From positions 1-49,127 of IMG/VR virus record IMGVR_UViG_3300045988_124399: a stretch of 49,127 nt of DNA, one strand, 5' to 3'. The stretch is from a virus. Both the position numbers and the translations under genes were made by a program. Below the pieces are notes generated by a model. The model was not told the DNA's origin. It saw only the letters and a list, made by a program, of their open reading frames with translations, and did not search any database. This document shows positions 11,757-49,127 of the stretch, one piece after another; position 1 is the stretch's first letter; each line of letters opens with the position of its first letter.

Positions 11757-11773
11757 GAAAGGAGAAAAGGATA

Positions 11774-12880: not shown

Positions 12881-12900
12881 TTTAATATAAATTATTCCAT

Positions 12901-12943
12901 GGGGAGAAGGGATTAAACTCCCTCTCCCCATATTTTTGTTTTA
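12901..12943 (+). terminator. Rho-independent terminator after the capsid gene
   Basis: GGGGAGAAGGGA-TTAAAC-TCCCTCTCCCC followed by ATATTTTTGTTTT. Confidence 0.75.
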
Positions 12944-12966
12944 TGAGTAAAAGGAGAAATTGAATA

Positions 12967-13560
12967 ATGATTAATAATGAAGATATTTATAATGTAAAAA
13001 ATAGAAGCACTAGTGTAGTTGTTTATACTATTCCTGATACTAATTTGCGTCGTGAGTTTGCGCCCGGTGAGACTAAGCGTATTCCATTTGGTGAGCTAGA
13101 GAAGTTAACTTATCAGGCAGGCGGCCGCGAATTAATTGCTAATTTTTTACAAATTTTAGAGCCAGAAGTAACTCATACTCTTAATGTTCATACTGAACCT
13201 GAATATAATATGTCAGAGCAACAAGTTGCTGATTTAATTCTTAATGGCTCATTAGATGCTTTCTTAGATGCTCTTGATTTTGCTCCTATTGGAATTATTG
13301 ACTTAATCAAGAATTTATCTGTTAGCCTTCCTATTACTGATATTAATAAGCGTAGAGCTTTGAAGGAAAAAACTGGGTTTGATGTTGATAAAGCTATTGC
13401 TAATGATATCGCTAGTAAAGAAGAAGATACTATTGTAGAGAAAGAACCCGCTGCTAAGCGCCGTGTAGTAAGAGAAGAACCTACTACTCAAGGTCGTCGC
13501 ACAAGCGGTTCTGGATATAAAGTAATTAATAAAACCGAGGAAACTTCCTCCAAGAAATAA
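12967..13560 (+). CDS. Hypothetical head or neck structural protein (TAG-free)
   Basis: 197-aa uninterrupted ORF. AAAGGAGA precedes the start and the stop is TAA. Confidence 0.4.
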   Translation: MINNEDIYNVKNRSTSVVVYTIPDTNLRREFAPGETKRIPFGELEKLTYQAGGRELIANFLQILEPEVTHTLNVHTEPEYNMSEQQVADLILNGSLDAFLDALDFAPIGIIDLIKNLSVSLPITDINKRRALKEKTGFDVDKAIANDIASKEEDTIVEKEPAAKRRVVREEPTTQGRRTSGSGYKVINKTEETSSKK

Positions 13561-16844: not shown

Positions 16845-17843
16845 ATGAAATTTGGTGTTCGCGAAATTTGCGATGTCGTTTTAAAGGCTAAGGCAACTCA
16901 GAAGGTTGGTAATAAAATCTTTTATAGAAATGAGCCAGTTATTTATTTCGACACTTTAAAAACTTCCAGCATGGAAGGCGCTGCTACCACTGTATATGCA
17001 CAGGGAGGACGCGGTAATGCTCGTTTAGTAGCCTGGGAAGGTGAGCGTACTGTTACCTTTACAATGGAAGATGCTCTTATTTCTCCAGAAGGTTTCATGA
17101 TTCTTTCTGGTGCTGGTCTTGTTGAAGCAAGTGCTACTAGTACTATTAAACAGCACGTTACTGAAACTGTAGATAAATCACAAATTGATAGTACAACTAC
17201 TGAAGGACAAGTTACTATTCGTGTTTCTAAAAAGCCCTATCTTCCAACAGACGAACAAGAGAATTTTGCTTATGTTATGTTTGTCAAAGATGGCGAAATT
17301 ATCACTGAGCCTTTTATTCCTGTCCATGAGGAGTTAACCGCTAAGAAAGATACTAATGGTAATGAATATTTTGAATTAACTCTTAAAACTCCACATGATG
17401 ATTATATTGCTGGTACAGGTAATTATACTTTTAATGAAAAGAACGGCCTTCCAGCGGCTGCAGCATATGATAGTGCTATTGTTGATTATTATACTGAAAA
17501 GGCTAGCGGCGCTCAACAGATTGAGATTACTGCTGATAAATTCGGTGGTAACTATTATCTTGAAGCCTCTACTTTATTCCGTGATCAAAATGGTGTTGAT
17601 ATGCCTGCTGAATTTATTATTCCTAACTGCAAGATTCAGTCTAACTTCACCTTTACAATGGCTTCTTCTGGTGATCCTTCTACTTTCACCTTTACTATGG
17701 ATGCTTTCCCTGACTATACTCGTTTTGACCACAGTAAGAAAGTTCTTGCGGCAATTCAAATTATTGAGGAAGGCGGAGCTAGTGACCTCCATCGTACTAT
17801 GACTGCTCACGACGAGGCTCACAATGCTTCTTTCACTGACTGA
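16845..17843 (+). CDS. Major tail (tube) protein (TAG-free)
   Basis: 332 aa. AAGGAGGA precedes the start. The protein is Thr/Ser-rich and beta-rich. It sits ahead of the chaperone/tape-measure region. It has highly-expressed codon usage and no TAG. Confidence 0.5.
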   Translation: MKFGVREICDVVLKAKATQKVGNKIFYRNEPVIYFDTLKTSSMEGAATTVYAQGGRGNARLVAWEGERTVTFTMEDALISPEGFMILSGAGLVEASATSTIKQHVTETVDKSQIDSTTTEGQVTIRVSKKPYLPTDEQENFAYVMFVKDGEIITEPFIPVHEELTAKKDTNGNEYFELTLKTPHDDYIAGTGNYTFNEKNGLPAAAAYDSAIVDYYTEKASGAQQIEITADKFGGNYYLEASTLFRDQNGVDMPAEFIIPNCKIQSNFTFTMASSGDPSTFTFTMDAFPDYTRFDHSKKVLAAIQIIEEGGASDLHRTMTAHDEAHNASFTD

Positions 17844-19246: not shown

Positions 19247-19780
19247 ATGGCTAAAATTTCATATACTAAATTAGGAATTAGCAAGGAAGAATTGAATAAA
19301 GTTCAGACTGTAGAATATAATGATCAGACTATTGAAGTAAAGCAATATCTTCCAGTTGCAGAAAAGAGTGAATTAATTACTCGTGTATTAAATAATTCTG
19401 TAGATGAAGACAATGGATATTATAATCTTTTAAAGATGGATATGCATCTTGCACTTGAGATTGTTTATGCTTATAGTAATATTAATTTTACAGAAAAGCA
19501 AAAAGAAGATTCAGCGAAGCTTTATGATATGCTCAATGCTTCAAAGGTGCTTAATCTTATTATTGGTCTTATTCCAGAGGGGGAGTTTTATTATTTAAAT
19601 AAGACTGTCCATGAAATGGCTAATAATATTGTAGCTTATCGCAATTCCGCGATGGGAATTATGGAGCGCATTACTACTGATTATAGTAACTTAAATTTTG
19701 ATGCTAGCACGATTCAAAAAGAGCTTGCCGATCCTAATAATATGACTTTATTGAAAGATATTCTCACTAAATTGGGCTAA
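19247..19780 (+). CDS. Putative tail assembly chaperone (TAG-free, own promoter and terminator)
   Basis: 177 aa from MAKISYTK. AAAAGGAGA precedes the start. The protein is helical and acidic. It sits immediately upstream of the tape measure gene. Confidence 0.35.
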   Translation: MAKISYTKLGISKEELNKVQTVEYNDQTIEVKQYLPVAEKSELITRVLNNSVDEDNGYYNLLKMDMHLALEIVYAYSNINFTEKQKEDSAKLYDMLNASKVLNLIIGLIPEGEFYYLNKTVHEMANNIVAYRNSAMGIMERITTDYSNLNFDASTIQKELADPNNMTLLKDILTKLG

Positions 19781-19909: not shown

Positions 19910-22900
19910 ATGGCTAAACAATTAAATAGTTATCAAGTTAATTTACAATTTAATGCAAATACTACATAGGCGAAAACGCAATTGCAAGATTTGCAAACGA
20001 CCCTTGATGCTATTATAAAGGAATCTGTGGCGGGAGTCTCTAAAGGAGATTTTAATTTAACTAAAAGATTAAACGAAGCGCAGATAGCAGCATCAAAACT
20101 ACAAACCATTTTAGCTCAAACTACTAATGTAAAAACGGGAAAAATGGATTTAACAAGATTTTCTCAATCTTTAAAATAGAGTAATTTAGATTTAAAAAAG
20201 ATATAGAATAGTTTACTTGAACTTGGACCTTCTGGGCAAAAAGCTTTTATGTCTTTAGCTCAATCTATTGTTGAAGCTGATGTTCCATTAAAAAGAACAA
20301 ATTTATTAGTTTCTGAATTATGGACAACTTTAAAGAATACAGCTCGTTGGTAGATTTCTTCTAGTGCATTGCATGCATTTATGGGTACTATTCAATCTGC
20401 TTATGGATATGCCAAAGATTTAAATGAATCTTTAAATGATATTCGTATTGTTACTGGACACAATATTGAATATATGGATAAATTTGCTGAAAGAGCAAAT
20501 AAAGCGGCGAAAGCATTAAATGCTACTACATTAGATTACACTAATGCTTCTTTAATTTACTATCAATAGGGTTTAAGTGATGAAGAAGTAGAAAAAAGAA
20601 CAGATATTACTGTTAAAATGGCTAATGTCATTAAACAAAATGCTGATATTGTTTCTGATCAATTAACTGCGATTTGGAATAATTTCTATGATGGCTCTGA
20701 CTCTTTAGAACATTATGCTGATGCGATGGTGCGCTTAGGTGCAGATACCGCGTCTAGCTCTGATGAAATTGCTGGTGGTCTTGAAAAATTTGCGGCAGTT
20801 GCTAATACAATTGGTTTAAGTTTTGATAATGCAGCAGCTGCATTGGCTACTATTACTGCTACAACTCGTCAAAGTGAAGATGTAGTAGGTACTTCTTTAA
20901 AGACTATTTTTGCTCGTATTCAAGGTTTAAAATTAGGCGAAACCTTAGAAGATGGCACCACTTTAAATCAGTACTCACAAGCTCTTGCAGCTGTTGGAGT
21001 TAATATTAAAGACTCCAATGGACAATTAAAGGATATGGATATCATTCTTGATGATTTGGGACACAAATGGTCAACAATTAGTAAAGATCAATAGGTAGCT
21101 TTAGCTCAACAAGTAGCTGGTATCCGTCAATACAACCAATTAATTGCTTTAATGGATAATTTTGATTTTTATCAAGAAAATATTCAAAGAGCAAAAGAAG
21201 CAGATGGTTCTTTACAAGAACAAGCTGATATTTATGCTGAAAGTTGGGAAGCTGCTCGTGATCGTGTGCGTGCAGCAGCCGAAAGCATTTATGATGATTT
21301 GATTAATGATAAATTCTTTATTAGTTTGTCTGATGCGATAGCAGGAGCTTTAGATGCTATCGATAAATTGATTAGTTCTATAGGAGGTCTTCCGGGAGTA
21401 ATTGCAGCTCTTGGAATGATATTTACTAAAGTGTTTAAAGTTCAAATGGGCGAGGGCGTTAATAATTTAGTTTTTGGCCTTTAGTCTTTAGTTGGACTTA
21501 CAAAAAAGAGTGCAGTTTCTCTTAAACAAGAAGCTTATAATCGAGCTTCTAATATGGCTTTTGATACTGGTACTGAAGTTGGAGATAGATAGGGAGAATC
21601 ATTAAAATAGACTTTAGACTTAAAGAAAAGAATATATGATATATCTGAAAATATTACAAAAGAGGAAAGACAATAGCTTGAAGGGTTAATTGAAATTAAT
21701 CGAGCTTATAATGAACAGGCTATAAAAGCAGCTCAAAAAAAAGATTAGGCTAGTGAGAATCTTCAAAATACTCGCATGGATCTTAGAGCGCGCATAAGAA
21801 GAAATTCTGCCACTGGAAAAGTAGAAAAAAATTTAAATACTTTTGGAAATGTTCAATAGCAAATGGGTGGAATTATTAAAACTGGTTTGCGAGGAACTAA
21901 AGCTTTAGATAGACTTAATAAAGCATTAAAAGAAGGAAGTCCATTAGGAAAAGCTTTTGAGGGCAGAATAAATACAATTCAGCAGGCTTTAATTAAAGTA
22001 GATAGATCTGAAGCAGCTGAATCTATTGGAAATTTTGTTGAAGAATTAAAAAACGGAACTATAACAGTAGATTAGTTCTTGAAAAAAGTAAATAATGTTG
22101 TCACTAAAGAAAATTTAATGGCTGATGCTACATCCAAAGCGGCAGCTATTCTTGAGGATGACTTTGGTAAAAAAGTTAAAATTAACGGCGAGGAATGTCA
22201 AAAGCTTGCTGAAGATATGACTGAAGTTATTGTAACAACAGATAAATTAAAAACTACTAATAAGCAAGTTGCTGGGTCTTATGAAAAAATAAAAGCTGCA
22301 ATTGAAAATTATAAAAATGCTACTGGAGATTTAGGGTAGAAATTAATTTCTATGGTTAATGGTTTTTCTTCATTGGCTATGGGATTGGCTTCCATTAAGA
22401 GTATTTTTGATACTTTATCTGATGAAGATATGTCATTCTTTGATAAACTTTTATCAGTTAGTATGTCTTTAGGCATGGGTATTTCTATGACCGTTTCTGG
22501 CTTATCTACTATGGCTAAAGCCTATAAAGAATTGGCAGAAGCTAAAACTTTAGATAATATAAAGACTTCGATTAATACTGCTATTACAGAGATTAATAAT
22601 CTGGTAAAAGCTTAGGCGGCCGCCAGAACAGGAACTCAAACAGTAGCTACAGATAGATAGGCATTGGCTGAAAGCAAACTTACAAAAAATATAATATTGT
22701 AGAATGCTGCCTATTTAGTCCGTAATACACAGATGTCTGCAACAGCAGCTTTTGGATTAAGTTTAGCTGGTACTATATTAGCTGTAGTTGCAGCTGCAGC
22801 GGCTTTAGTGCTTATATCTAAAGCAGTTTATAATTCTATTCATAAAGAAGAAATAGCGGCTGAAGCAGCAGCCAAAGCGGCTTCAGATCTTGGTAATGCT

Positions 22901-25900
22901 TATGATGAGTGTCGTGAAAAGTATCAGCAAATGATTGATGAGTTTAATGAATACAAAGATGCTATAGATGCTTTGGATAATTTAACTAAAGGAACTCAAG
23001 AATATCGTGATGCTTTAGACGAGGCTAATCAAAAGGCTTTAGAATTAATTCAAAATAATCCTGATAAATTTAATAAAGATGATTATTATTGGGATGATAA
23101 TAAATTAGTTATTAAAGATACAGCTATGTCTCGTGTAGCTGAAGCTAGTAGACAAGAGACAGCGGATTTATAGGCTGCTTCTGCTATGGCCAATGCCAAT
23201 AATGCTCAGGCATAGGCAAATTTGCAGAAAGAAAATCTTACTGATATTGTTAAGAGTTCTTTGCGTAACACAGGTAATGTAAATAAATCTATTGATGCTT
23301 ATTTAAATAGCGATAGAGTTGCTGTTGATAAAGAAGACTTAAAAGATATTCTTAATCTTGATAATGGTATAGACGATAAGGCTTTAGTTAATGTCCTTTG
23401 GCGCAATATTGATGCTTTAAATGAGTTAAGAAATACTATGGATGGGGTTGAAACCTCTTTTGATCTTGCTAGTAAAACCGCAGCAAGAGCGCAATGGTCT
23501 GGTTCTGGTAAAGAAAATACTAAAGCTGGAAAAATGGCGCTTGAAGGTGGCGGAAGATTATATAATAATCTTTATGCTGAGGGAGAAAATACTGTTAAAG
23601 GTTATTCATTAGACGCTAATTGGGCTGCCTATGAAAAAATGAATAATTTGAATTCTCTAAAAGGATATAAACGTTCTATTAAAAGCGATAAAGTTGAATA
23701 CAGTTATTATGATGAGAATGGTGAAAAGATAACTTAGGAAATCAATAAAGAAGCTATTCAAATCGCGGCCGCAACCCGATATGCTAATGATAGAATTGGA
23801 GAAGCTTTAGATAGCTTATATCAAAATATTGCTAAAGCTAATAAAGATGGCCTTGATAGTGTAGGGAAATATTTATCAACAGAAAATTTTGATAATATGA
23901 CAAAAGGCGAGCTTGAACAATTTTAGGGATTAACTGATGATTAGTTAAAAGAATACGGAATTGATAAACAAGCTATTGAAGAAGCTAAGAAAGTTGTATT
24001 TGATGAAATTGATGGTCTTAATGAAGCTATGAGCGATTAGATCACTGTTGGAGTGAATAAGACTTTAAAAGAAAATATTTAGAATTTTGGCTCTGAAGGT
24101 AAAGATGCCTATATTAGTGCTATCAATCAAATTGGTGAATTTATTGATTGGAATGCTTTGTCTCCAGAATCCTAGGCTGAAGCTTGGAATAAAATTTCTA
24201 ATATTAATTGGTTTGATTTTGATGCTCAACGTCAAGCTGAAACTCTAATTAAAGAAATGGGCGGAGATGTTTCTGTTCTTGGAGATAATTGGGATAAAGC
24301 TTTTAGCTAGATGCGCAAAGCTGGAGATGTCGTTCCAGTATTAACTGATATCAAAGAACGCCTTGATAAAATAGATAATATTACTAAAGATATGAAAATC
24401 GGTAAGATTTTAGAAAAAGAAGATTATGATACTTTAGTAAATTATAATAGTGAATTGGCAAGATATTTTGCTATTTTATCTGATGGGTCTGCTGTTTTTG
24501 TAGGTGATCCTCTTGATTTCCAGTAGATGGTTAAATCCACTAAGTAGGATGAATTAAGTAGAACTATAAATGGATACCAAAATATTATTGATTAGTATTA
24601 TGCGGGGGCTGAAGAACTTAAAAAAGCGGGTGGATTAGATTAGATTCGAGAAGTTGGGTCTGAAAATGTTAATAATCAGTTAGCGTTTTTAAAGACTTAG
24701 AACTATGATGAAACATAGATTTCTGATTGGACTGGTAAGCTTGCTAATTCTAGAGGATAGGATATTGACACTTTAAAAGCTATTGCTGAAGCAGTTAATG
24801 AAGTTGGTAATTCTTTCTTATCTAGCAAAGATAGTATAGAACAATATACAGCAAGTAGTCAATAGGCTATGAATGAATTGGCAATGACCGCCGAAACTGC
24901 TCAAGAAGCAGAAGAAATGCTTAAAAATGGTAGTATCAATGAAATAGCTTATAATATGAGTGCTATATAGCGTATGTCTAGTGAAAAATGGGAAAATTTA
25001 GATTCATCTGAAGTAAATAAATATGCAGATTCTTTAATGAAGACAGCTAAAAGTTCTAAATTATTAAGTGATGAACTTGTAAATAATAAAGAGGCTGCTG
25101 AAGATGTAGCTCTTTACACTATGAAAATGAATAATGGTGTAGAGAAATTGAAAAATGGCTTTAGCGGATGGGCTGACGTATTAACGAAATCTGATTCTGC
25201 TTCACAAGAATATTATGATGCAATGGTTGATATTAAAGATGCCATGTCTGATGTGCTTGGGGTTTCAGAAGAATTTTTAACTGATGAGTTTATTACTAAA
25301 AATTTAACTGATATAGGCAAGGCTGCAGAAGGCGATGCTGATGCTATAGATCGTTTGGCCGCTGCGGCAAGTAAAGATATTCTTTTAAATGTTGATTTTG
25401 TTTAGGATAATAAACAATTACAAGATGTTTTATTATCAATGCATGATAAATTAGCGGCGGAAATTCCAGATATAAAAATTGGTACAACTTTTGAAGGTCA
25501 AGATGATTTAATTAGATAGGCTCAAAACATTATCGGCACAGCAAAAATGACTGCTGAATAGGCAAATGCTTATTTTAGTGCCATGGGTTTTGAAACTAAA
25601 TTTAAAGTTGAACCTCAAAAGATGGAATAGAAAACCCCGGTAGTACGTTCTAGATAGACAATAGTTGGAGCGGGATTTGATGAACACGGAGCTCCCTATT
25701 GGGAAACAACAACAGAAACTTGGAATGATGGATATAGCATTCAAACAGGTTATGTCGATGCTATTGCTATGGCGACCTCTCCTGATGGAACAAAAACTCC
25801 GATTATTGAAAGTATGACTAGTAAGCCTACTGGAATTATGAATAATAGTTCAAAAGCTAATAGAGGTACTACAGGCTCAAGTAAAGGCGGAGGAGGAAAT

Positions 25901-28828
25901 AAAAATAAACCAACCAAGGGAGATTTAACTAAAAAAAGCGATGTTGTTGATCGTTATAAAGAAATTACTGATAGCATCAATGATACCACTCGTGCTTTAG
26001 ATAAGGCTAATAAATCGGCAGATAGACTTTGGGGTAAAGCCCATCTTGATGCGATGGCTAAAAGTAATAAATTAACTTTAAAAGAAATTGATTTATTAAA
26101 ACAAAAGCAAAAAGAGGCTTAGGCTTATCTAAAGACAGATAAAGTTACTTTATAGCAAGCTGCGAAAGAAGCTGGAATTACTTTCACATTTGATGAAGAT
26201 GGTGACATTTCTAATTATACTGATTAGATGACTAAACTTTATAATTAGCTCATAGCTGCTTAGAATAAAGCAAATTCTTTTTCTACAAAAGATGCTCAAG
26301 ACGCTTATAAAGAAGCAACTTTAGATCCGATTCAAGAGAAAATCAATAAGTTGAAAGATGCTATTAAGCAATATGAAGATACAAGAGATTTAGTCGAAGA
26401 ATTAACTGATGATATCCAAGATAAAATAAACGAATGGCAAGATAAAAATTATCAAATGCTTACTTATGAAGTTGAAATAAAGGTTCAATTAGATGAAAAT
26501 GATACTAAAAAATTAGAATATTATTTTGATAAATTAAGTGATAATATTTATAAAGCCGCTGAAGCTCTTGGATATTTACAAGGTCAATTTAATCCAGTAA
26601 TTAGTCAATTAGGAACTTATGAGAATTTCTATAGTCAGTTAAACAATGCTTATTCTAATGGAGAAATTTCTCAAGAAAATTATATCGAAGGCTTACAAGA
26701 CGTGTATGATAATACATTAGATAATTTAAATGCTTTGTAGGATTTAGATAAAGAAATGCTTGAATATTATGGTAATACTATAGATTTAGCAAATGATGAA
26801 TTGTCTAAATATACAGATCATATGGAGCATTTGACTAGTGTATTGGATCATTATCGTTCTATTATTACTTTGTTAGGTAAAGATAAAGATTATGATAAAG
26901 TTTTATCAGTTTTAAATGGAACTGCTTAGACTAAGAAAAATAATTTTGATACTTCTAAACAATGGTATGAAAGCTTGAAGCGTGAACGTGATGCAGCAGC
27001 TGCGGCTTTAGCCAGTTCAACTGATGAGGCTGAGCGCGAAGTGCTTCAAAAGAATTATGATGCTATATTAGCTGCATTCGATGAAGCGGAAGAGGATATG
27101 CTTTCTAAAGCTGAAGAATATGGTGAAGCATTAAAAGAAATTCTTACTATAAAGATGGAACAAGCTGCGGATGAAATGAATAAGCAATTGAGCACTACTA
27201 AAGTAAGTATTAATGGTAATAACTTTAATATTTCCGGTTGGGATGCTTTAAATGATGCTTTGGATAGAATGTCTTCTTATCAAGATGAATACTTAACAAA
27301 AACTAATTAGATTTATGAAATGAATAAACTGCTTAATAATGTTAATTAGGCTATTGATAAGACAAATAATCAAGCAGCTAAAAATAGATACCAGCAATTT
27401 ACTAAAGAAATTGAATAGTTAAGAGATAAAGATAAATTAAGTCAATTAGAATTAGAAATTGCTTAGGCTAAATATAAAGTGCTTGAAGCGCAAATCGCAT
27501 TAGAAGAAGCTCAAAACGCAAAGTCTACAGTTAGATTACAACGTGATAATGAGGGTAATTTTGGTTATGTGTATACCGCGGACCAAGAGAAAGTAAATGA
27601 TGCGCAATAGGCTTTGGCGGACGCGGAAAATGATTTATATAACATTCGCCTTGATGCGACAAATAAATATGGTCAACAAAAACTTCAATATGAGAAAGAG
27701 TTGGCTGACAAACTTGCGGAGCTCGATTAGAAAGCTGCGGAAGATGCCGTTTACCGCGAGACCGCTTATCAGCAAGAACGCGCTTTAGTAATTCAACAAT
27801 ATACTGATTTAATTACTACTGCTGGAAACCTTTATGCGAAAGCGCAAGAAGAGGATAGCAGAGTTGTTCAAGATGCTTGGGTAAATTCTTTTGATATTAT
27901 CAAAGATAATAGTAATAGTTGGAAAGATACTATTACTGAAAACACTAATATTATCAATGATACATTTAAAGAATGGCAAGACAGTATGGATGAAATTAGT
28001 AAAATTGTTGGTGATGATTTAAAAGATACTCAATAGAAAGTTAAAGATGTTACTGATGAAAGTAATAAACTTTATCAAGAAGTATCTAATAAAGTTATCC
28101 CCGCTCTTGAAGGTGAGTTAAGTTCCGTTCGTAGTGCCACTGAAGCTTGGGCACAACATCGTCAGCAATTACTTGATACTATTAGAGCTTATGAAGAGCT
28201 TTTGAACGCTATTCAAGCGACATTGCGCGCTTAGAGCGGATTTGGTAGCGATAGTGGTGGAGACACTGACTGGGCGGCCATGATGGGCACTGTGGCTTAT
28301 GGTTCCGCGCAATATAATCAATATAAAAGAAATCGTGAAGAAAAAATTGCTAATGGTGGTAATATCAATGAAGATACTACGGCTCGAGTTGATGCATATT
28401 ATAAATTGCTAAGTGAAGGAAAAATTTCTGGTAAACTTCCTAATGGTAAATATAGTTTTACTTAGCTTACTGATTAGGAATGGAGAGATTTAGTCGGATT
28501 TAGAAGTGGTGGTTATACTGGCACTTGGAATGATGACGGAAAATTAGCGTTCTTACATTAGAAAGAATTAGTTCTTAATTCTGATGATACAGAAAATATG
28601 TTAGCTTCTATCCAATTAGTTAGATAGATCGCAAAACAATTAGACTTCAATAGTCAACAAATCTCTACTCTTTCTTCTTCTGGATTTACTGTTAGTTCTC
28701 AAGATGGAACATTAGAATAGAATGTTAGAATTGAAGCTAGTTTCCCGAACGCTACTGATAGATACGAAATTCAAGAAGCATTTAATACATTAGTTAATGT
28801 AGCTTCTCAGTATGCCAATAGAAAATAA
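19910..28828 (+). CDS. Tail tape measure protein, 2972 aa (about 60 in-frame TAG)
   Basis: All 15 track ORFs from 19982 to 28280 share frame 2. The only interruptions are TAG, with no TAA/TGA over 8.9 kb. The protein has coiled coils, hydrophobic segments (22350-22830) and a Gly/aromatic C-terminal motif GGYTGTWNDDGK. The stop is TAA. Confidence 0.85.
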
Positions 28829-38105: not shown

Positions 38106-40379
38106 ATGGGTTTTTATGGCAATATAAGTAATACTTCAAAAACGACCTTCACTTTTGATAGAATTTATAATAATAGACTTCAAATGGATAATAATTGCGC
38201 TAGCGATGGAGTGTTTTTAGGTCGCTATGTTTTAGTTGAGTATGGCCTTCCAGCTTCTTAGTATATAATAGGTTATCTTGACAATAATGGAAATATGTAT
38301 GATGACCCTACTGATAGAAGTGATTCTCACATTATTTTATGTGAAAAGGGCAAAATGGTAAAGGTTAATAGAAATAGATATTGGTATTTATATACAGGAG
38401 ATACCAAATCTGATGGGTCTCCGTATTGGAGATATCTTACTAGAATTACTAATGACAGAGTTGATGATGAATAGTATAATAAAAATTATCAAATAGATTA
38501 TCCAGTTTATGGACGAGGATATGACTCTACAGTTTGGATAAAACAATATGTTAATAACCAAGAAACTTATATTTAGATTGCTGAATTAAATACTGTTGTT
38601 CCGAATTTTTCAATTTATCCATTGCTTCCTCAAGATCCATATGTTGCGGTTGATAATGCTACTATTGTATATCAACCAGGTAAGTATTATTATTACGATG
38701 AAGCTGACAGTCATTATAAATTAGATAATAATGATATTAAAACTGAAGGGCGCGTTTATTATTTAGAAAGTGAACTTGGACCAGCGATAACCGCAGATCA
38801 AAGTAGCACAAATTTACTTTATAAATTAAGAGTTCCTACTAATTTCCAACTTGATTTAGATGATAATAATATCTATTATAATAAAGAAGGATTTAGTAAG
38901 ACAAAACGTTCTTATGATGGTATTACAAAAAATAGTATTAATTATAAATTAAGTTAGTCAGGATATAGATTTTATTATAATGTAGAATAGGATAATGTTG
39001 TTGGTGAACCGATTGAAGATGGCTATGACCGCAAATCACTTGTAGTAAAGCTTCCTGCTCTTGGTAATGCGGTATGTGAAACTTATGATTTACTTTATGG
39101 TCAAAATCGCAATGATTCTATTACTAATTTTGATAAAACTAATGTTAAGGGCGCTTTAAATACCCTTAATAGAAAAATGAATTTAGGAAAATTAGAAACT
39201 AATAAACTTATTTATTTTTCTACTGAAACTGATAATGATATCAATGACAATTATATGAAATCTGCGACCATTCAAGGAGATAATTTAATTTCAATAGATG
39301 CAGATATTGAAAAAAATAAGGGAGCTATTAAAATTACTCATAATAATTTAGATGTAAATAAAGCATCAAAAAGTTATGGTAAAGATGTTGATTTTAGTAC
39401 TTTTGGTTCTTCCGTTACTTTACCTAAATTATTTACTGATAGAGCTGGACATGTTGTAAAAGAAGAAACATTTTCAGTTAGTATTCCAAAAGGTTCTTAT
39501 GAAAATACTAAAGAGGGTAATGTTCTTACTTCTTTAAGTTTTATTGATACTACTGGAGCTTTAAGTAGTGAGAAATCTTATTTAGGTACTTTAACATTAG
39601 GAACTGGATATATCACTAATGATAAATTAAATACTATCACTAAAGATACAACTCTTAATGATAGTATTACTAAATTGATTGAGAATAGCGATAGTAAATA
39701 TAATACTTTATTAGGTCAAACTAATAATAGTTTTGGTAAAGATACTGTCCCAACTCTTTATGGTTTAAGACAAGGAATTAATAGTGATAGAACTAGTATT
39801 AGTAATTTAAGTAGTAAAATTGATATTTTAAATGGAGTTGTATCTACTACTAATTCTGTTGCTTATAGTATTAAATAGGCTATTGATAAATTAGATAAAG
39901 CTGATAACAAGGTAGATAAACAATTTGTTACGGCGGTAGAAGAAAAAGATGGTTTAATAACTGTTTCAAGAAGTGCTTTACAAGAAAGTGATTTGCCTAT
40001 TACTTTTGATGGAACTTATAGTAATAGTAATAAAGTTGCTACTATGAGTAGTTTAAATACTTTAAAAGCAAATCTTTTAGGTGATTATACTGGCACATTA
40101 GCTGATGTAAATACGTTAGCAAATAGTAAATTAAATGAAGACGCGGTGCGCGGTCTTACGTATAATGCAACTTCTGGAACTAATGGAGCTAAAACCATAG
40201 CAGAAATGTTTGATTTAATTGTAGAATTATAGAATAAAAATATGCAGTTAAATACAACTATTAAAGCATTATAGGATAAAGATATTGAATTAAATAATTT
40301 AATTGCTGGATTAAGAACTGACGTTGATGCTTTAAAGAATAATTCGAATAATACTGATACTCCATCTGAAACAACTTAA
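38106..40379 (+). CDS. Tail fibre protein, 757 aa, Ser/Thr/Asn-rich with C-terminal coiled coil
   Basis: ORFs 38106, 38622, 39177 and 39993 share frame 0 joined through TAG. A terminator follows. Confidence 0.45.
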
Positions 40380-40389
40380 TTTAAATAAA

Positions 40390-40420
40390 GGGTTTGGTCT
40401 TAATAGGCCAAACCCTTTTA
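40390..40420 (+). terminator. Rho-independent terminator
   Basis: GGGTTTGG-N-CCAAACCC followed by TTTT. Confidence 0.6.
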
Positions 40421-40467: not shown

Positions 40468-41049
40468 TTGCCTAATACATTAAATAAATATGTAAAATTT
40501 GTCAGAGGTTCTAAAACCGCTTTTGAAAATTTAGGGACGAAAAGAGACAATGATACTTTATATTTTATTTATGGGGAAAATGATTCTTCTGGAGAACTTT
40601 ATTTAGGTAGTCGTCTAATTTGCGGTGGAATTAGTTCCGCAGGTAAGTTAAGCGATTTAAGTGATATTGTTCTTAATGAAGTTAAGACAAATCAAGTTTT
40701 AATTTATAATGGAGAATAGAAAAAATGGGTTAATTAGGGTTTAGAAAATAATGAGACTTTAATTAATTCTATTGTTGAAAAATTATCTACAGAAGAAAAT
40801 TTAGCTAAATTAGCTCCTGTTTTTAAGGGCACAGTCCCGGGTTTAGTTCCTGTTTCTCTACATGAAACTAAAGGAAAACATATTCTTACCGACGCTGGCA
40901 CATGGATTGATATGCCAGTAGGAACATTAACTTAGGGAGATATTGAAACAATTAATATAGCTAATAAATATTTAGTAGATAAGAGCCCTGATAATTTGGT
41001 AACTCGTGTTGAAGCAGTTGAACAAACTGTTTCTTGGTCTGATATTTAA
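40468..41049 (+). CDS. Fibre-module protein with conserved N-terminal attachment-like domain (TTG start, 3 TAG)
   Basis: AAAGGAG lies upstream. The N-terminus KFVRGSKTAFENL...DTLYFIYG resembles the N-termini of the next two genes. Confidence 0.4.
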
Positions 41050-41063
41050 AGGAGTGAAAAAGA

Positions 41064-42725
41064 TTGAACGTTAAATTTTTAAAAGGCTCTCAAGCCGAAT
41101 TTGAAAAGGTGGCAGGTAGATATAAACCTGGTGCGTTTTATTTAGTAATTAATGATAATAAATCCGCCAAAGACTATAAAAAGCCAAGTCGTCTTTATTA
41201 TGGCGTAGATGAAAATAATTGTGTTCCTGTAAATCAAGGTATTAATGTAGTTGATACTACCGCAGGTTTACCCCAAAGTTCTACTCAAAACACTGCTGGT
41301 GAATTTTATTATGTAAAAGATAAAAATATTTTATGTATTAATAATGGTAAAGGTTGGATTCAAACTAATACCGATACTGTTTTAGATACTAGTAAAAAAA
41401 ATAGTAATGTATCAGTAAATAGTAATCCTGAAAAACCTAATGGAGTTTCTATAACTAATACTATTGCTGATAGTAGTGGTAATATTATTACTGAGACTTA
41501 TGATATTATAGGTAGCGATTATATCCAAATTGAAGCAGTTCCCGCTGTTGATGATAAAGGTGTAGACACTGTTAAATTGAGTTTAAAAGGAATTAATTAT
41601 CAGTTAGGTTCTTCTTTAAAGGAAAAAACTTTAAATGTTAATTTAAAGAATGCTGATACTGATGTAGGTAATTTTAATATTATCGCTGGTAGTAATGTTA
41701 ATATTGCTGAAACTTCTACAGGAAATTATACTTTAAGCGTAAATAAAGCTGTTGATAGCATTGATATAGTTAATCATGTTGGTGGCACTGGTTTTACTGC
41801 TTCTATTAGTGGTCCGGGTGTTGAAGGAGCTGGTAACGGTACAACCTTATCTGCTGATATCGATCCAGAAATTGCTTTAGAAGGTAAGACTGGTAGCTAC
41901 AAATTTAAAGATGGTGTTTTAACTCTTCCTGTTTATAGTAAGCAAGATATTGATAATCAACTTAGAACCATTAATGCTATGGTATTCCGTGGCGGATTCC
42001 AAGTTAAAGATGGAGCTATTGCCTATGATAATTCTGATATTACTGAAATTACTGAAGGTAATACTTTTATTTACACTGGAGCCGAAGACACACTTTGGAA
42101 TGGTCATTATTTACGTCCTGGTGATCTAATTATTGCTTCTGGTGAAGAAGTTAATGGGGCTATTACTGGTACTATTAATTGGACCTATGTTCCTTCTGCC
42201 GATGACCCTGTTACTGAAGTTGAAGGAGCCAATGATAATAGTACTGCTGGTTTTATCATTAAACTTGGTTCTACTAAAAAACTTTTAGATTATGCTCTTA
42301 ATGGTGAAAGTGGTATTGTTTTAGAAACAGAAGTTTTAACAGATTCAAAAGGTCAACCTACTAATTCTAAAGTCGTTACTATTAAACATAGTAATACTTT
42401 AACTGTAAATGATCCAGTTCCTTTAGAATATGCAGATGAACAAACTATTACTATTAATGAGCCAACTGAAATTGATGCTCAAGGCCATGTAGTAAAATCT
42501 ACTCAAAAGACTTTTACAATAAAAAATACTCATCAAGAGATTGGTAATGCAGATTATACAGTAAATGGTACTGATACTTTAATTCCTAACCTTAAAGTTG
42601 CCGGTGCTGATCTTGAAGGTAAACCGCTTGTTTTCGCCAGTAATAGTCTAAAGGTTAATGTTTCCGCAGCGACTGCGACTGATAATGCTAAAGTTAATTT
42701 TGAGTTAGAGTGGGGAACATTCTAA
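41064..42725 (+). CDS. Fibre / receptor-binding-type protein, 553 aa (TAG-free, TTG start)
   Basis: AAAGGAGTG lies upstream. It shares the N-terminal module KFLKGSQAEFEKV...GAFYLV. It has zero in-frame TAG. Confidence 0.45.
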   Translation: MNVKFLKGSQAEFEKVAGRYKPGAFYLVINDNKSAKDYKKPSRLYYGVDENNCVPVNQGINVVDTTAGLPQSSTQNTAGEFYYVKDKNILCINNGKGWIQTNTDTVLDTSKKNSNVSVNSNPEKPNGVSITNTIADSSGNIITETYDIIGSDYIQIEAVPAVDDKGVDTVKLSLKGINYQLGSSLKEKTLNVNLKNADTDVGNFNIIAGSNVNIAETSTGNYTLSVNKAVDSIDIVNHVGGTGFTASISGPGVEGAGNGTTLSADIDPEIALEGKTGSYKFKDGVLTLPVYSKQDIDNQLRTINAMVFRGGFQVKDGAIAYDNSDITEITEGNTFIYTGAEDTLWNGHYLRPGDLIIASGEEVNGAITGTINWTYVPSADDPVTEVEGANDNSTAGFIIKLGSTKKLLDYALNGESGIVLETEVLTDSKGQPTNSKVVTIKHSNTLTVNDPVPLEYADEQTITINEPTEIDAQGHVVKSTQKTFTIKNTHQEIGNADYTVNGTDTLIPNLKVAGADLEGKPLVFASNSLKVNVSAATATDNAKVNFELEWGTF

Positions 42726-42786
42726 GGGCAATACTATTTAATAATAAATATAATTTTTTCTATTTTATATAGAAGAATGTTTTTAT

Positions 42787-42823
42787 GGGGAAAGATGAAA
42801 TATTCTTTCCCCATATTTTTTTT
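42787..42823 (+). terminator. Rho-independent terminator
   Basis: GGGGAAAGA-TGAAATAT-TCTTTCCCC followed by ATATTTTTTTTT. Confidence 0.75.
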
Positions 42824-42843
42824 AGGATAGAAAGGAGTAAATT

Positions 42844-45800
42844 ATGTCTAAGATACGTTTTCGTCCTGTGCAAGGTCCAGAAGAAAAAATAAAAGAATAT
42901 CCTCAAAGCGATGGATATTTTTATGTGGCAACAGATACAGGTCGAGTTTATTTAGATACGGCAACTGAAAATAAAATGCCAATAGGGTCTAGTGGTGTTC
43001 AGGTAATTTACGGTACAGATAATACTGTGGAAATTGAATATGATGCGGATGAAAACCCAGTGGCTTATTTAATTCTTTTATCAAAATTATCTATAACAAA
43101 TTGTCATATAGATGATTTAATTTTAAATTTAGACGGATGTTTTTATCGAATTTTAGGTTTTGCTTTAAATGAAAACCGCGAAGAATGCGCGAGATGTGAA
43201 AAATTAACTGTCGCCGGGGCGGGCGGTGGCGGAGAAGGAGACTCTGAACAAAAAGTTTTAGGAACTGTTTCTTTAACAAGAATTCCATCTGACAGCCCTG
43301 TTGATATCTTAAATGAAGAAAATGTTAAAGTAAAAGTTTTGGTTAAATGTAGAACTGTTGGTGGCGTTCCGCAATCTTCTTCTGTGCAAGGAATTATAAC
43401 TATAAGTGAAATTAAAAGTGCTACAGAAAAAGAAGTATATTACACTTCTCCTCCTACTACTTATGAACATAATATTTCACAAGAAATTGATTTAACTAAT
43501 ATTTTAAGAAATTCATGTTCTAGTGAGATTAATTTTAGTATTTATTATAATCCTGATGAAGAAAATAATAGATTTTAGAAAAGCTCTGATACTATTAATA
43601 TTAATAAGCATCATCTCTCTTTTAGCTGGAAAGAAAGTAGTTTTAGTAATGATAGTCCAATTGATAATGGACAAATATCTGTCAGTTGGTTAATGTCTGA
43701 AGATATCGCCAGATCTGTTGAAGTTTATTTTGATGATTATTTAGTTTTAGATAGAACTTATAGTGATACTGATTCTTCTTCTGAAGATTCTTTTGTTATT
43801 ACTCCTGATACAAATATATTAGGGGTTGACAAAGTTTCTACTTTAAAAAATTATTTTACTCATGGTGAGCATATAATAAAAGCAAAGTTGTATTTAATGA
43901 ATAATTCTAAAAAAGGCGCGGGAACAGATTTTATTCAAAAGGAAATTGTTATTCAAGAATTAGGTAATAAAATGCCTTTAATTTGGGTACAAGATTTTAA
44001 GACAGAATATTATACTTATGAGACAATAAGAATTCCTTTTAAAGTATTAGACCCAAATAATAATGGAGCTTTTATAACTCTTTATAAAAATGGTGTTCAA
44101 GTAGGAACTAGAGAATTAGATAGTTCGCAAGTTAGAGAATGGCAATATTGGGAAATTACTAATTTAACTGTAGATGATAGTTCTTATTATACTATTAAAG
44201 TTGGTACTGATCCTTATTCTTATTCTCGTAATTTTAATTTTACAATTTTAATTGACCCTTTAAGAGATATGAAGTTAGTAAAAAAAGATAATTTAAAAGT
44301 TAATTTTATAGCTACTGGTCGTTCTAATTCAGAAGGAAAATTAGGTCGTGAAACTTATTTAATTAATAATAATAAATATGTAGAATTTAAAAATTTTAAT
44401 TGGTATAATAATGGGTGGGTTTTTGATGAAAATAATACGACTTGTTTGCGAGTAAGTAATGGTGCAGAAGTATCTATTCCAGTTGGGAAAATGGCCTTTA
44501 AAGATGGATCATCATCTGCTACTATTGAGGTTCAATTTAAAATAAAAAATCCTCAAAATTATGCTAAAGTTATAACTAAATATACTAGATATAAAGTAAG
44601 CAGAGATAATTGGGAAGATGATGATGCTTGGGATAAATTTAAAGCTCAAAATAAATATCTTAATTATGATGAGTTTTTAACTAAAGAATATTTACCGACA
44701 ACCAATTATAGCTATGATGATTTAGAGTATAATAAAATAGAACAAGATTTTAATTTAAAGAATTTAGTCTGTGCATATGGTAAATTAGGAAGCTCTGTTT
44801 CTCCTGGTATTTATTTTAGTCCATAGGATGCTGTATTTACGGCTAATGGCGCTCAAGAGACAGTTTCAGTTGATTTTATTGAAAATGAAATGTTAAATCT
44901 TTCATTTGTTTATACTAAAAAGAAAAGTGATATAGAAGGCGGAAATTCTAAATTATTAGAAATTTTTATGAATGGCGTTTTAACTAGTGTTGTACGTTGT
45001 AGTAGTGATATTTGGAATATTGATTCTGATTTTATTAAATTTATGTCTAACACTTGTGATATTGATATTTATAGTATTAGAGTTTATGATACAGATTTAA
45101 CCATTCCTGAAATAGTCCAAAATTATGCTTTTGATAAAAGAAGTATAAAACAATGGGATCAAAAAGACCTTTATGAGAACAATACGGTATTAAAAGACGA
45201 TGTATTCTCTTATACTAAAATGAAAAAGTATAATGATAATCATCCTACTGATCCTTTAATGCCTTATATTATTTTAAGAACTACTAAAAATAATAAAAAC
45301 AACACAGATAATAGATTACCTTATTCTAAAGAAAAAGGAAGTTAGGAAGGAACTTTAGAATTTGTTAATACGGCTTTAGATGCTGCTTATAATAGTGGCG
45401 AGTTAGAAAAAGTTGCTATAAAAGAAGGATGGAAACCTGTAATTGAAAAAAATAAAGAGACTAGGGTAGAAACAATAAAATATACTGCTGTATAGAATTA
45501 TTATATACATCATTGCCCTAGTTTTATAACTGTTCTTAATGGATGTACTTTCCAAGTTCAAGGCACTTCTTCACAATTTTATCCTCGCCGTAACTATAAA
45601 GCTAAATGCAAAGAATCAATGCTTTTAAATAGAGGTCCATTTGCTGAAGAATATAAAAAAGCAGGAGATTAGTATAATGAAGATATAACTAAACATCCTT
45701 GCTATTTAGAATGGTTTTATATGGATAATAAGACAGTTGGTACTACTAAATTTACTTTAAAGATAGATTTTATGGAATCTTCTGGAGATTATAATAGAGG

Positions 45801-48800
45801 ATTTGCTAATTTAGTTAATGAAATTTATTCTAAACATCCCGTAGAAGATTATAAAGATTCTTTTGATAATTATAATTTATATGGAAATTTAGAAGATTAT
45901 CGTACTTCAGTGAAAGGATTCCCAGTTTTAGCTTTCCATTATATGTCTAATGATGATAATACATATTCTAAAGAAAATAGCAGTAATTGTATTTTTATTG
46001 GTAAATATAATATGCTATTAGACAAAGGATCAGATGAATGCTATGGATTTAAGCCTGATAAAAAGATTTTACAAAATCAAATTATTGGAAGTCCTAAAAT
46101 AAGAGATATAGCAGAATGCTGGGAATTTTAGAACAATTCAAGAACTTTTTGCTCTTTCCGCGACCCTTGGAATCGTTATAAATTATCATTTAGAAATCCT
46201 AATATGGTAATCCCTCCAGATGGAGATAATCCTGAATTAGTTAAAGGCGCTCCAAAAGTCGTTGATTCTTTTGAACCAAGATATAATCCAAATGATGATT
46301 TAATTGCTAAATAGTTATTTAATTTAAAAGACTGGGATGATCCAGATGGAACATAGACTAAGATTGTTGGAGAAGAATTAAAAAATGTAGCTCCTGATAG
46401 GCTTATTAAAAAAGAAATAATTGATGAAATTACTGGTGTAAAATCTATTAAATGGATTATAAAAAATCCAGATGGAGAAGAAATAGAATTTAATGTTGGT
46501 AATAATACAAGTAAACAAGAATTGCTCTTAGCTTTAATGTCTAACTGGGAAGATGCAGTTAGTTGGGTATGGAGTACTTGTTTAGATTGTGATATTGAAT
46601 TTGATGATGGACAAAAACTAAAAATTCCATCTATGGGTACTTATACTAAAGTTGATGAATTAGCTGAAGCTATATATGTCCCTAATGTTTACTACATTGA
46701 AAATGGAGTTAATGAAAATGGAAAAATTATTTATAAATTAGCTTCTGAAGAATATAATTCTGAAATAAGATATTATAAGTAGGTTAGTGAAAATAATAAT
46801 TTAAAATATGTAAGTATAAAGCTTACAAATAATCCAGATAAAGTATATAAAACAAATATTTATTATCTTTTAACTGATAGTAAAAATGAAATTTATATAT
46901 TAAGTTCTGATAAATTTAATTCTTCTTTAGATTATTATTCTTTTGTTAAAAATGAAGATCTTATTAATGAAAGATGGAAATTACCTAAACCAGTAACCTA
47001 TGATTCTATTATTTATACTAAAGATAGTAAAGAATATCGTCAAGCTAAATTTAAAAATGAATTAAGCAATTTCTTTGATATTGAATATTTAGCTTCTTAT
47101 CTTTTAATGACAGAAATTTTTGAATGTTATGATTCTCGTGGTAAAAATGCTATGTTTGCTTCTTGGGGGCCCCAAAAAGGTAATATTCAAAGATCTACCG
47201 GTAAATAGCATTATATTTGGTATCCTATGTTTTATGATATTGATACTCAATTAGGAATAAATAATACAGGTATTCCTTCTTTTGAATATTACATTGATGC
47301 TACTGAAGAAGGAAGTTTTTCAACTAACGATAGTGTTCTTTGGAATAATTTTTATACTTTCTTTAGAAGTAAAATGGTAGATAAGTATAAACAATTAATG
47401 GGAACTCAAAATAATTCTTATAGTCCAAATGATTCAAGAGTAAATAAAATTTTTACTAAAGGAGCAGGAAGCGGGGCTAAAAAAAGTGATATTGTAGATA
47501 AATGGTATCGTACTGATCCATCGGTATTTCTTGATAGCTATGCCGTTCTAGGAGACAGACCAATTGTTGCCTTAAGTTTAGACGAAGAATTTAAGTATAT
47601 TATTCCAACAAACTCTAAAGCCAAAGATATGCCAGTGTTTGGTCGTTTAACTGATGGAGGTTCATATGAGGTTGAAGATGATAAATATTTTTATGCTTTG
47701 CAAGGAGATAGAAATCTTTATCGCGCGCAATTTTTAGCTAATCGTCTTAATTACATTGACTCTTGGTTGACTGTTGGCACTTATGCCAGAAATGGTGGAG
47801 GAAGCTATATTAGAAGTCGTATTTCCGCAAACAATCCTAAGAATACATCAGATAAATGGATTGAAGGTACTAACACTCAAAACATGGAAGGATTAATTAC
47901 AAATTCTCAGTATTGGAAAAATGGTGCTGAATTCGAAGAAAAAAATCATATGTTTGATGGTGAGTATTGGATCAACATGGAACCCGCGCGTAATGCCTAT
48001 GTTACTATTGGTACAGATGGAGAGAATTTTCCTTCAAAAAAATATAATGGTTTAGAACCGGTTAAATATGTAGCTCCTGATATTAAAAAAGGAATTATGA
48101 GTAGCGGTAATTATAAAGAACAATTATATTATATTTATGGAATGGATCAAATGAAATCTCTTGGTGATTTAAGTAAATTATATTTTCAAGAGTTTGCGGC
48201 TGAAGGAAAAATGGAACGTTTAACTGATTTATTATTAGGATATGATGGAAAAGATGAAAGTGGTAATGAATATTTTAATAATGATGTAAATGACTGGTCC
48301 TTCTCAAAAGGCGGAATGCCTTTACTTAAAGAAATGAATCTTTGTAATATTAACTTTAAAAAAGACTAGGGGGCATTAGATTTAACTAAAAGTGAAAAAC
48401 TTGAAAACTTTAGAAATACTAAATCCAATATCCCGAGAGTTAATTTTGCTCCTGGAGTAGCTTTAAATACTTTATATTTAACCAATCGAACAAATTATTT
48501 AAGTTTAATAGAAGCTAATTTATTAACGAAATTAATAACTAACTATATATATCCTGAAAAAAATCCAATTACTGGAAAACTTGAGGTCTCAGATGAAAAT
48601 CGTGGTTTATATATTCAAGGTCTTACTGATGCTGAAGAAGGAAAAGAAAAAACCGAGATAAGAACTTTTGATATTCGAGGCGGTAATTTAGGTTATAATA
48701 GTTATGAATTGTTACGCAAATATATTTCAGCTAGTAAAAATAGTAAATTAGATTTATCTAATTGTATTATTAATTTAAATAATGTTTAGTGGAGTCCATA

Positions 48801-49127
48801 TAGACTTCTGACTGACACTAAAACAACTCTTGATCCAGAAAGAAAATCTTATTATAGAGATAATGGACATTTTTAGTTGGTAGCTATTCCAAAAGATTAG
48901 GTTAATAAAATAACAAAATCTGATATTAAAAATAATTAGATTTATTATTTAGATACAATAAATGGAGACAATAATAATCATAGTATAATAACTGATTATA
49001 ATTTATTAATTGATATTTATAATAATTATAGGGGTCTTAATACTAATAAGCCAGAAATATCTGGTGTTATGTATATAAAAAATAATAATTAGATTGATGA
49101 ATCTATTATCTAGAATGAGTTATAGGA
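42844..49127 (+). CDS. Giant fibre / host-interaction protein, more than 2094 codons, open to the window edge (dozens of TAG)
   Basis: Track ORFs 42844, 43693, 44890, 45721, 46522 and 47227 all sit in frame 1. Hand reading of every gap found only TAG, never TAA/TGA, out to 49127. The N-terminal module RFRPVQGPEEKI...DGYFYVATDTGRVYL is shared with the two upstream genes. Confidence 0.6.

Follow-up and report, generated by a model that had tools for sequence, protein, structure and literature searches.

In a 49,127-nucleotide (nt) stretch of viral DNA (positions 1 to 49,127 of IMG/VR record IMGVR_UViG_3300045988_124399; hereafter the window), three consecutive genes that we call g1, g2 and g3 occupy the distal end of a block of tail genes, and we found that all three begin with a similar module of ~40–45 residues followed by bodies that have no similarity to one another. 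The reading that we favor, and that we hold to be probable, is that g1, g2 and g3 encode co-displayed fibers that use one anchor and belong to a conserved block of genes. An earlier note on this DNA, made from its letters, had proposed that one virion-attachment domain is fused to different receptor-binding bodies in three alternative or co-displayed fibers; it had also proposed that the middle gene might be a recently swapped cassette.

The module consists of hydrophobic-x-F-x-x-G, a short helix and G-x-Phi-Y-Phi-x-x-D-[TS] ... Phi-Y-Phi-[GD], and the three N-terminal peptides quoted in the earlier note are exactly those that we read from the genes. With BLASTP, the N-termini of g1 and g2 align over 45 residues at 31% identity (E = 3e-5). 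For profile comparisons, we collected relatives of the g3 N-terminus (8, later 15) and of g1 (9), and an exhaustive search gave a g2 family of 454 clusters (50% identity; E <= 1e-3), most of which aligned from residue 2–3 to the end. The g2-family consensus is MANVxFKRGTQANL..GAFYLTTDTHRLYVG, and a 10-residue insertion in g2 itself masks its likeness to g3 (DGYFYVATDTGRVYLD). When families were compared with hhalign, the g3 family matched the g2 family with P = 1.7e-7 to 1.8e-9 (probability 94–96%) and the g1 family matched the g2 family with P = 6e-7 (probability 92%). Two of the real alignments scored 46.5 and 40.1; shuffling the columns of the g2-family alignment 150 times gave 11.4 ± 2.5 (maximum 20.7), and the real comparisons overall range from 40 to 52. 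We also ran a hidden Markov model (HMM) of the g2-family N-terminus against every six-frame open reading frame (ORF) of the window and of two loci; g2 ranked first, followed by the g3 N-terminus (E = 0.0017, residues 4–56) and g1 (E = 0.34), and the other ORFs gave noise only (next best E >= 0.8). When 73 N-termini were aligned together, five positions (F, G, G, Y and D) came out nearly invariant. The similarity thus exceeds background on formal alignment, and profile-level evidence indicates that the N-terminal module is homologous in g1, g2 and g3, with g1–g3 as the weakest link. A homologous N-terminal module on at least two adjacent fiber-type genes with unrelated bodies is what we found, and in this the earlier note was right.

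The gene structures themselves depend on how TAG is read. ORF calling with the standard bacterial code (table 11) fragments g1 and g3; when TAG is taken as a sense codon, the whole window becomes one plus-strand array of long genes. In-frame TAG is the sole interruption of the long frames (209 TAG in the 14,873 codons of 26 window genes), and in these genes it makes up one third of all Gln-type codons. In orthologue alignments, 679 of the 1,189 non-TAG orthologue codons in TAG columns (57%) are CAA or CAG. TAG encodes Gln because TAG columns are mostly CAA or CAG in other genomes, and the window phage uses TAG-to-Gln recoding (code 15). On the other side of this account, a tRNA scan of the 49-kb window found no tRNA, so there is no suppressor tRNA(CUA) there. 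Upstream of g1, PHROG matches, all on the plus strand, comprise a sigma-like gene, the large terminase, the portal, virion structural proteins and tail proteins, and the window corresponds to the late structural module of a ~190 kb phage from gut-type metagenomes. A megablast search with 19 kb of sequence found no match among GenBank phages.

The three genes keep their order and sizes in relatives. In 19 IMG/VR contigs of up to 197 kb, which carry g2 at 80–98% identity, the gene order is the same: a fiber-type gene that we call u1 (761–786 codons), g1 (205–206), g2 (551–558), g3 (2,566–2,653; ~2,580 amino acids (aa) at full length), and then a gene of ~570 codons. The same order is found in L020, a distant TAG-recoded relative on a 174-kb contig (g1-like 288 aa, g2-like 571 aa and 26% identical, g3-like 2,488 aa), and in L022, a relative with the standard code (GC 0.377, no in-frame TAG), where the proteins are 340, 536 and 2,538 aa long and have the same three N-termini. 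Identity among close relatives is 92–98% for g1, 78–94% for g2 and 70–93% for g3. Comparison of close relatives revealed no hypervariable tip within the portion of the proteins that the window covers, and we found no exchange of an unrelated body behind the same module at the g2 position among 21 loci. From the same order in the 19 close relatives, L020 and L022, we infer that the triad is an old conserved structural block and not a recent swap.

Because a homologous module heads unrelated bodies at the distal end of the tail block, the most economical reading is that of a common docking or trimerization module on co-displayed fibers. The module would most likely serve as a proximal trimerization or docking knob, through which three different fibers would plug into equivalent baseplate sites or into each other, so that all three would be displayed together; g1 would be a short fiber or adaptor, g2 an all-beta fiber and g3 a giant. 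The earlier note's shared attachment domain for co-displayed fibers is borne out in its homologous module and its tail-block position, with the attachment itself predicted. Its "alternative" fibers are not, since we saw no sign of alternation or of gene-content variation among relatives.

The giant g3 runs through 2,094 codons of the window and past its edge, in agreement with the earlier figure of more than 2090 codons, and its frame (frame 1, 42844–49127) contains 18 TAG and neither TAA nor TGA. Behind the module, its layout is a Gly-rich linker, ~750 aa of unannotated beta-rich sequence, a CotH-like domain and a BspA-type leucine-rich repeat (LRR) end. The linker lies where the earlier note had seen it (about 43210) and is kept in distant g3-family members; in contrast, the "many repeated beta-rich segments" described there were not recovered, as BLASTP of g3 against itself gave no internal repeat. 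Full-length g3 has no Pfam match at E <= 1. Residues 655–1070 match the PHROG family phrog_14959 (function unknown), and residues 1392–1666 match Bacteroides phages (Hankyphage, phage p00) by tblastn. In all five of five homologous segments (g3 aa 1384–1675), the top Pfam match is CotH, PF08757 (E = 5e-5 to 4.5e-3; 17.0–23.4 bits). The CotH-like region is split by a variable insertion of ~290 aa at about aa 1100–1390, and it contains two motifs that are invariant in a family alignment (A7). By eye, YDSRGKN corresponds to NFDGFVHN and FYDIDTQLG to PWDYDATWG of CotH (5JD9), whose D228 and D251 have been reported to be catalytic (PMC7821199). A model of a homologue of this region indicates that it has the CotH atypical-kinase fold, and any kinase activity of g3 is putative. 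Several results temper the CotH assignment: g3 itself scores 17.7 bits against a gathering cut-off of 23.8, the motif correspondence is a mapping by eye, thin g3 profiles and the single CotH sequence gave a non-significant hhalign alignment in the wrong register, and the model is that of a 46%-identical homologue with a predicted local distance difference test score (pLDDT) of 68 and low confidence after residue ~577.

At the C-terminus of g3, which lies outside the window, relatives carry sub-threshold matches to BspA-type LRRs (PF13306): in L017, a relative of the window phage, the match is 21.7 bits (E = 1.9e-4) against a cut-off of 27.7, and in L020 and L022 the annotation is weak. The earlier note had suggested searches for depolymerase or carbohydrate-binding domains; these found none, there is no lectin or known receptor-binding protein (RBP) domain in the window part of g3, and g3 carries the CotH-like kinase fold instead. 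We also searched for the variable/template pair of a diversity-generating retroelement (DGR) and found no direct repeat of at least 40 nt of high identity in L017 9000–21659, a stretch that spans the g3 orthologue in full plus the 2 kb after it.

These features raise the alternative that g3 is not a receptor-binding fiber but a virion-borne or ejected effector, such as a kinase, that uses the module for oligomerization only. It would account for the invariant Asp/Asn/Asp motifs of the CotH-type fold and for a window part free of lectin, depolymerase and known RBP domains, and CotH domains are known in phage genomes, where they are unstudied (PMC8008677). However, the Hankyphage homologue of g3 ends in a DGR-diversified region, a hallmark of ligand-binding surface proteins, the sub-threshold LRRs at the C-terminus in relatives are adhesin repeats, and g3 sits among fiber-type genes past the baseplate block; we regard the effector reading as rather unlikely. 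We also think it unlikely that g3 is an active CotH-type kinase displayed at the tail tip whose substrate is a host surface protein or glycan on contact or, once ejected, some phage or host component. If it were, phosphorylation would be part of adsorption or host takeover, and the N-terminal knob would be an unnamed docking system in hundreds of uncultivated large gut phages.

A further alternative concerns the module: its likeness in the three proteins could be a convergent, generic strand-turn-strand pattern (G-x-Phi-Y-Phi ... D-x-x-x-Phi-Y) with neither common descent nor a common job. Some of our results do weigh against co-displayed fibers with one anchor. As single sequences, g3 and g1 or g2 are not significantly similar, and the direct comparison of the g1 and g3 families is a weak link (P = 1e-4, probability 58%). 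The joint profile also matches designer PQQ-like propeller blades (Cake, Bagel) at ~5 bits per blade, and because of this match part of the module pattern is a generic beta-hairpin signature. The only Pfam families that recur among the 73 N-termini are Mtd_N and Phage_tail_C, both sub-threshold. A Foldseek search of the g2 model described below against the PDB gave no significant match (best E = 0.008 with a template modeling (TM) score < 0.1). Presence in the virion and docking by the module are themselves predictions from sequence.

The two recurring Pfam families divide between g1 and g2 relatives. PF24243 Phage_tail_C ("Phage tail tip domain") matches 8 of the 73 N-termini (best E = 6e-6), and the attributable ones are of the g1 family (g1, P0019); g1 scores 17.3–19.6 bits against a cut-off of 23.7, over profile positions 2–26 of 26. 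PF18454 Mtd_N matches g2-family N-termini at 13.6–18.4 bits (E = 0.002–0.065) against a cut-off of 26.3 and is sub-threshold in 4 of 4 tested members. The g1, g2 and g3 proteins of the window do not match Mtd_N, and g3-family members match neither Mtd_N nor Phage_tail_C. When the g2-family profile was aligned to residues 1–60 of Mtd (PDB 1YU0) with hhalign, the score was 13.3–13.5 as compared to a null of 9.3 ± 1.8 with a maximum of 14.2, which also counts against the favored reading. Membership of the module in Mtd_N is not established, and the resemblance is a sub-threshold one.

The AlphaFold2 (AF2) monomer model of g2, built from an 83-sequence alignment (pLDDT 80.9, predicted TM score (pTM) 0.35), is elongated and nearly all beta strand, and the module in it forms a strand (4–9), a helix (10–15) and two strands (24–29 and 43–47). 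The g2 protein has no Pfam, PHROG, PDB-sequence or GenBank-phage match (the last by tblastn), a Pfam scan of 40 g2-family members found no match, an exact-sequence look-up of g2 returned no record, and self-BLAST showed no internal repeats. A PDB sequence search with profiles of the g3 N-terminus, the g1 family, the g2 family, the g3 center and the CotH-like segment gave nothing meaningful.

Set against convergence is the fact that the match always falls at the first residues and has the same element order (F..G, helix, GxFYxxxD, xLYxG) in three families and 73 sequences. The hhalign scores (40–52) exceed the shuffle maximum of 20.7, no further ORF matches in the six-frame translation of the 49 kb, and the same trio of N-termini is found in relatives down to 26% identity. 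We therefore judge convergence distinctly unlikely and retain the homologous module as the common element of the three predicted fibers.

The three genes differ in their use of TAG. There are 3 TAG codons in g1, 0 in g2 and 18 in g3, and in g2 none of the 15 Gln-type codons is TAG (binomial P = 2.3e-3). The earlier note had described the middle gene as TAG-free and its two paralogues as TAG-dense. The first description holds for g2 of the window, while its orthologues in close relatives have 0–3 TAG; the second does not hold for g3, which has 8.6 TAG per 1000 codons as compared to a window mean of 14. In L020, the g2-like gene (572 codons) has 0 TAG at 15 Gln-type codons and its neighbors have 2, 15 and 17 TAG. 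TAG avoidance in g2 is thus a long-standing trait that has been maintained. Together with the terminator-like hairpin between g2 and g3 and the 14-nt spacing between the g1 stop and the g2 start, it suggests that g2 is produced abundantly and in larger amounts than g3. In such a scheme, g2 would avoid TAG because decoding of this codon may be limiting, and the hairpin, which parts g2 from g3, would fit an abundant fiber that is efficiently made where TAG decoding limits.

Six genes in the window are TAG-free: g2, those of the block 10839–13560, which has a higher GC content and lies downstream of the portal, 9238–10821, the tube-position gene 16845–17843, and 19247–19780. The TAG-free head-block and tube-position genes have a GC content of 0.39–0.41 and prefer CAG over CAA. 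By position and PHROG, they are probably the major head and tube genes, and that g2 resembles them in its scarcity of TAG also points to an abundant g2 product; Pfam and PDB searches for "major capsid" and "tube" labels were uninformative (19247 had a weak sub-threshold Pfam match and 16845 a PDB match at E = 0.065).

That the three genes are instead alternative or exchangeable receptor-binding cassettes, with g2 a recent horizontal arrival, is highly improbable: g2 is indeed TAG-free between TAG-containing neighbors, its GC content is slightly higher (0.326 vs 0.28–0.31) and g3 hints at some recombination, but the 19 relatives, L020 and the standard-code L022 agree in gene order, sizes and N-termini, the TAG-poverty of g2 is old, and the flanks of the locus showed no repeats, recombination sites or DGR elements. 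The hint in g3 comes from residues ~57–100, where L001–L019 fall into two sequence types (…TDNTVEIEYDADENPVAYLILLSKLS… vs …TEKEVGIDYDADENPIGYSIRLSNLS…) independent of g2 identity, which suggests recombination within g3 among close relatives. The old block of co-displayed fibers remains the reading on which we proceed.

Features of the fiber block and of g3 are listed below. All of g1, g2 and g3 have good ribosome-binding sites, with a strong Shine-Dalgarno sequence before the TTG of g1 and g2; these TTG starts are kept in the 19 close relatives, and the L020 and L022 orthologues start with ATG. The in-frame TAG codons of g1 are at 40717, 40735 and 40933, and g1 homologues of 184–290 aa have their N-terminal ~90 aa in common.

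Features of the g1–g2–g3 block in the window (nt positions, all on the plus strand)
Feature	Position	Strand	Description and evidence
u1	38106..40379	+	757-aa fiber-type gene upstream; MGFYGN... N-terminus, coiled-coil C-terminus
GC-rich inverted repeat	40387..40418	+	AAAGGGTTTGGTC...GCCAAACCCTTT; between u1 and g1; seen directly in sequence
g1	40468..41049	+	193-aa short fiber-type; TTG start, TAA stop
g1 N-terminal module, aa 8–48	40489..40611	+	YVKFVRGSKTAFENL...DTLYFIYG...ELYLGS; BLASTP, hhalign to g2
g2	41064..42725	+	553-aa all-beta fiber-type; TTG start; 0 TAG
g2 N-terminal module, aa 2–48	41067..41207	+	NVKFLKGSQAEFEKV...GAFYLVIND[10-aa insertion]RLYYGV; family consensus, AF2 model
Terminator-like hairpin	42784..42825	+	12-bp stem + T8; between g2 and g3; terminator scan
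g3	42844..49127	+	ATG start; 2,094 codons in window, continues past window end
g3 N-terminal module, aa 3–40	42850..42963	+	KIRFRPVQGPEEKIKEY..DGYFYVATDTGRVYLDTA; hhalign to g2 family
Gly-rich linker, g3 aa 124–132	43213..43239	+	AGAGGGGEG; closes ~122-aa N-terminal domain
CotH-like atypical-kinase-fold region, g3 aa ~894–1675	45523..47868	+	
Match to Pfam CotH PF08757, g3 aa ~1398–1503	47035..47352	+	profile positions 155–246; E = 2.7e-3
YDSRGKN, g3 aa 1429–1435	47128..47148	+	invariant in family alignment A7; candidate catalytic-loop Asp...Asn
FYDIDTQLG, g3 aa 1463–1471	47230..47256	+	invariant in family alignment A7; candidate metal-binding Asp motif

In addition to the module, g1 (aa 60–90) and g2 (aa 78–100) have a second motif in common (…Q.L.Y…W.N / GEFYYV.DKNILCINNG.GW.Q), which is taken in by the 85 columns of the g1–g2 hhalign alignment. 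A "GLVP…LTDAGTW" motif is also present in g1 (g1 regions noted: aa 60–90 and 118–150).

The upstream gene u1 is a member of the same conserved block without the shared N-terminal module and starts with MGFYGNISNTSKTTFTFDRIY. It is 757 aa long here and 1,475–1,545 aa long in L020 and L022, so it is the block member that varies most in size, and a short motif, "D.AGHVVK", is common to u1 and to g2 aa 471–486. The inverted repeat between u1 and g1 is a possible terminator or transcription-unit boundary; it has no clean T run, and a consensus terminator scan did not call it. Directly after g3, outside the window, there is a conserved gene of ~65–67 codons (L017 19532–19740, L020 20219–20419, L022 19384–19581), whose product may assist the giant as a chaperone or assembly factor, and the gene after it encodes 570–655 aa with weak PKD/Ig-like matches.

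Elsewhere in the window, a 2,972-codon ORF with 60 TAG (19910–28828) holds the tape-measure position and, if it does encode that protein, would imply a tail of unusual length. The sigma-factor-like gene 3165–4220 (phrog_5767, E = 3.5e-54) lies two genes upstream of the large terminase and has a Cys-rich, HNH- or Zn-ribbon-like C-terminus. At the left end, the GC content of positions 600–1900 is 0.44–0.50 as compared to ~0.30 elsewhere, and small minus-strand ORFs in the standard code run opposite to the late module (362–727, 924–1397, 1479–1826 and 2202–2630). Possible identities of this GC-rich left end are foreign DNA, an early module or an accessory one; an Rfam search of it found no match.

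Taken together, these data provide a worked example of "one anchor, several fiber bodies" in uncultivated ~190 kb TAG-recoded gut phages. New here are a sequence signature for an anchor module without annotation, present at the start of at least three metagenome-only protein families, and, by our account, a tie between the giant g3 and the DGR target of Hankyphage, both of which carry a CotH-type kinase fold. The CotH link yields a testable hypothesis for a class of very large tail proteins of phages, described in the literature as unstudied, and selective, conserved TAG avoidance in a few late genes bears on how recoding tunes expression.

TAG-to-Gln recoded gut phages have already been described (bioRxiv 10.1101/2021.08.26.457843). 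Structural genes are where in-frame TAG is concentrated here, as in the code 15 gut phages of 150–210 kb (Jade, Sapphire and Agate clades); what our analysis adds is gene-level TAG avoidance, in g2 and in the probable major head and tube genes, that is conserved in a distant recoded relative. Like Mtd_N (BPP-1 Mtd, PDB 1YU0) and PF24243, the module is short, lies at the extreme N-terminus of fiber-type proteins and has an x-F-[KR]-x-G ... [TS]-D-[TS] pattern. In contrast to those families, it falls below the gathering thresholds and has no significant match to the Mtd sequence.

The closest counterpart of g3 is the 2,245-aa giant of Hankyphage (BK010646.1 31489–38226), which follows a "minor tail protein" gene and, according to its authors, has no similarity to any characterized protein (PMC6199706). 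Residues 205–1056 of g3 (E = 3.5e-13) and 1392–1888 (E = 4.9e-15), the latter including part of the CotH-like region, align to it. The Ala-rich N-terminus of the Hankyphage giant is unrelated and lacks the module (no significant hhalign match), whereas g3 has the module, and the Hankyphage giant ends in a DGR variable repeat, whereas the g3 lineage ends in BspA-type LRRs and has no variable/template repeat pair. For the CotH kinase of B. cereus (PF08757; PDB 5JDA/5JD9), the points of likeness are the top Pfam match in the five segments and candidate D...N and D-x-D motifs that are invariant in the g3 family; unlike that kinase, the g3 domain is below threshold, contains the ~290-aa insertion and is embedded in a ~2,580-aa virion-type protein.

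An N-terminal anchor with variable distal modules is a described design (PMC8262889, PMC12692247). In the RBP systems of Klebsiella phages, as here, adjacent fiber or spike genes have a common N-terminal module and unrelated bodies. In contrast to those systems, the module here has ~45 residues and belongs to a different, unannotated family, there are no depolymerase bodies, and the gene set is fixed across relatives rather than variable in content. The g1–g2–g3 arrangement thus exemplifies a known design in conserved form; it is neither a variable cassette nor one that was newly acquired.

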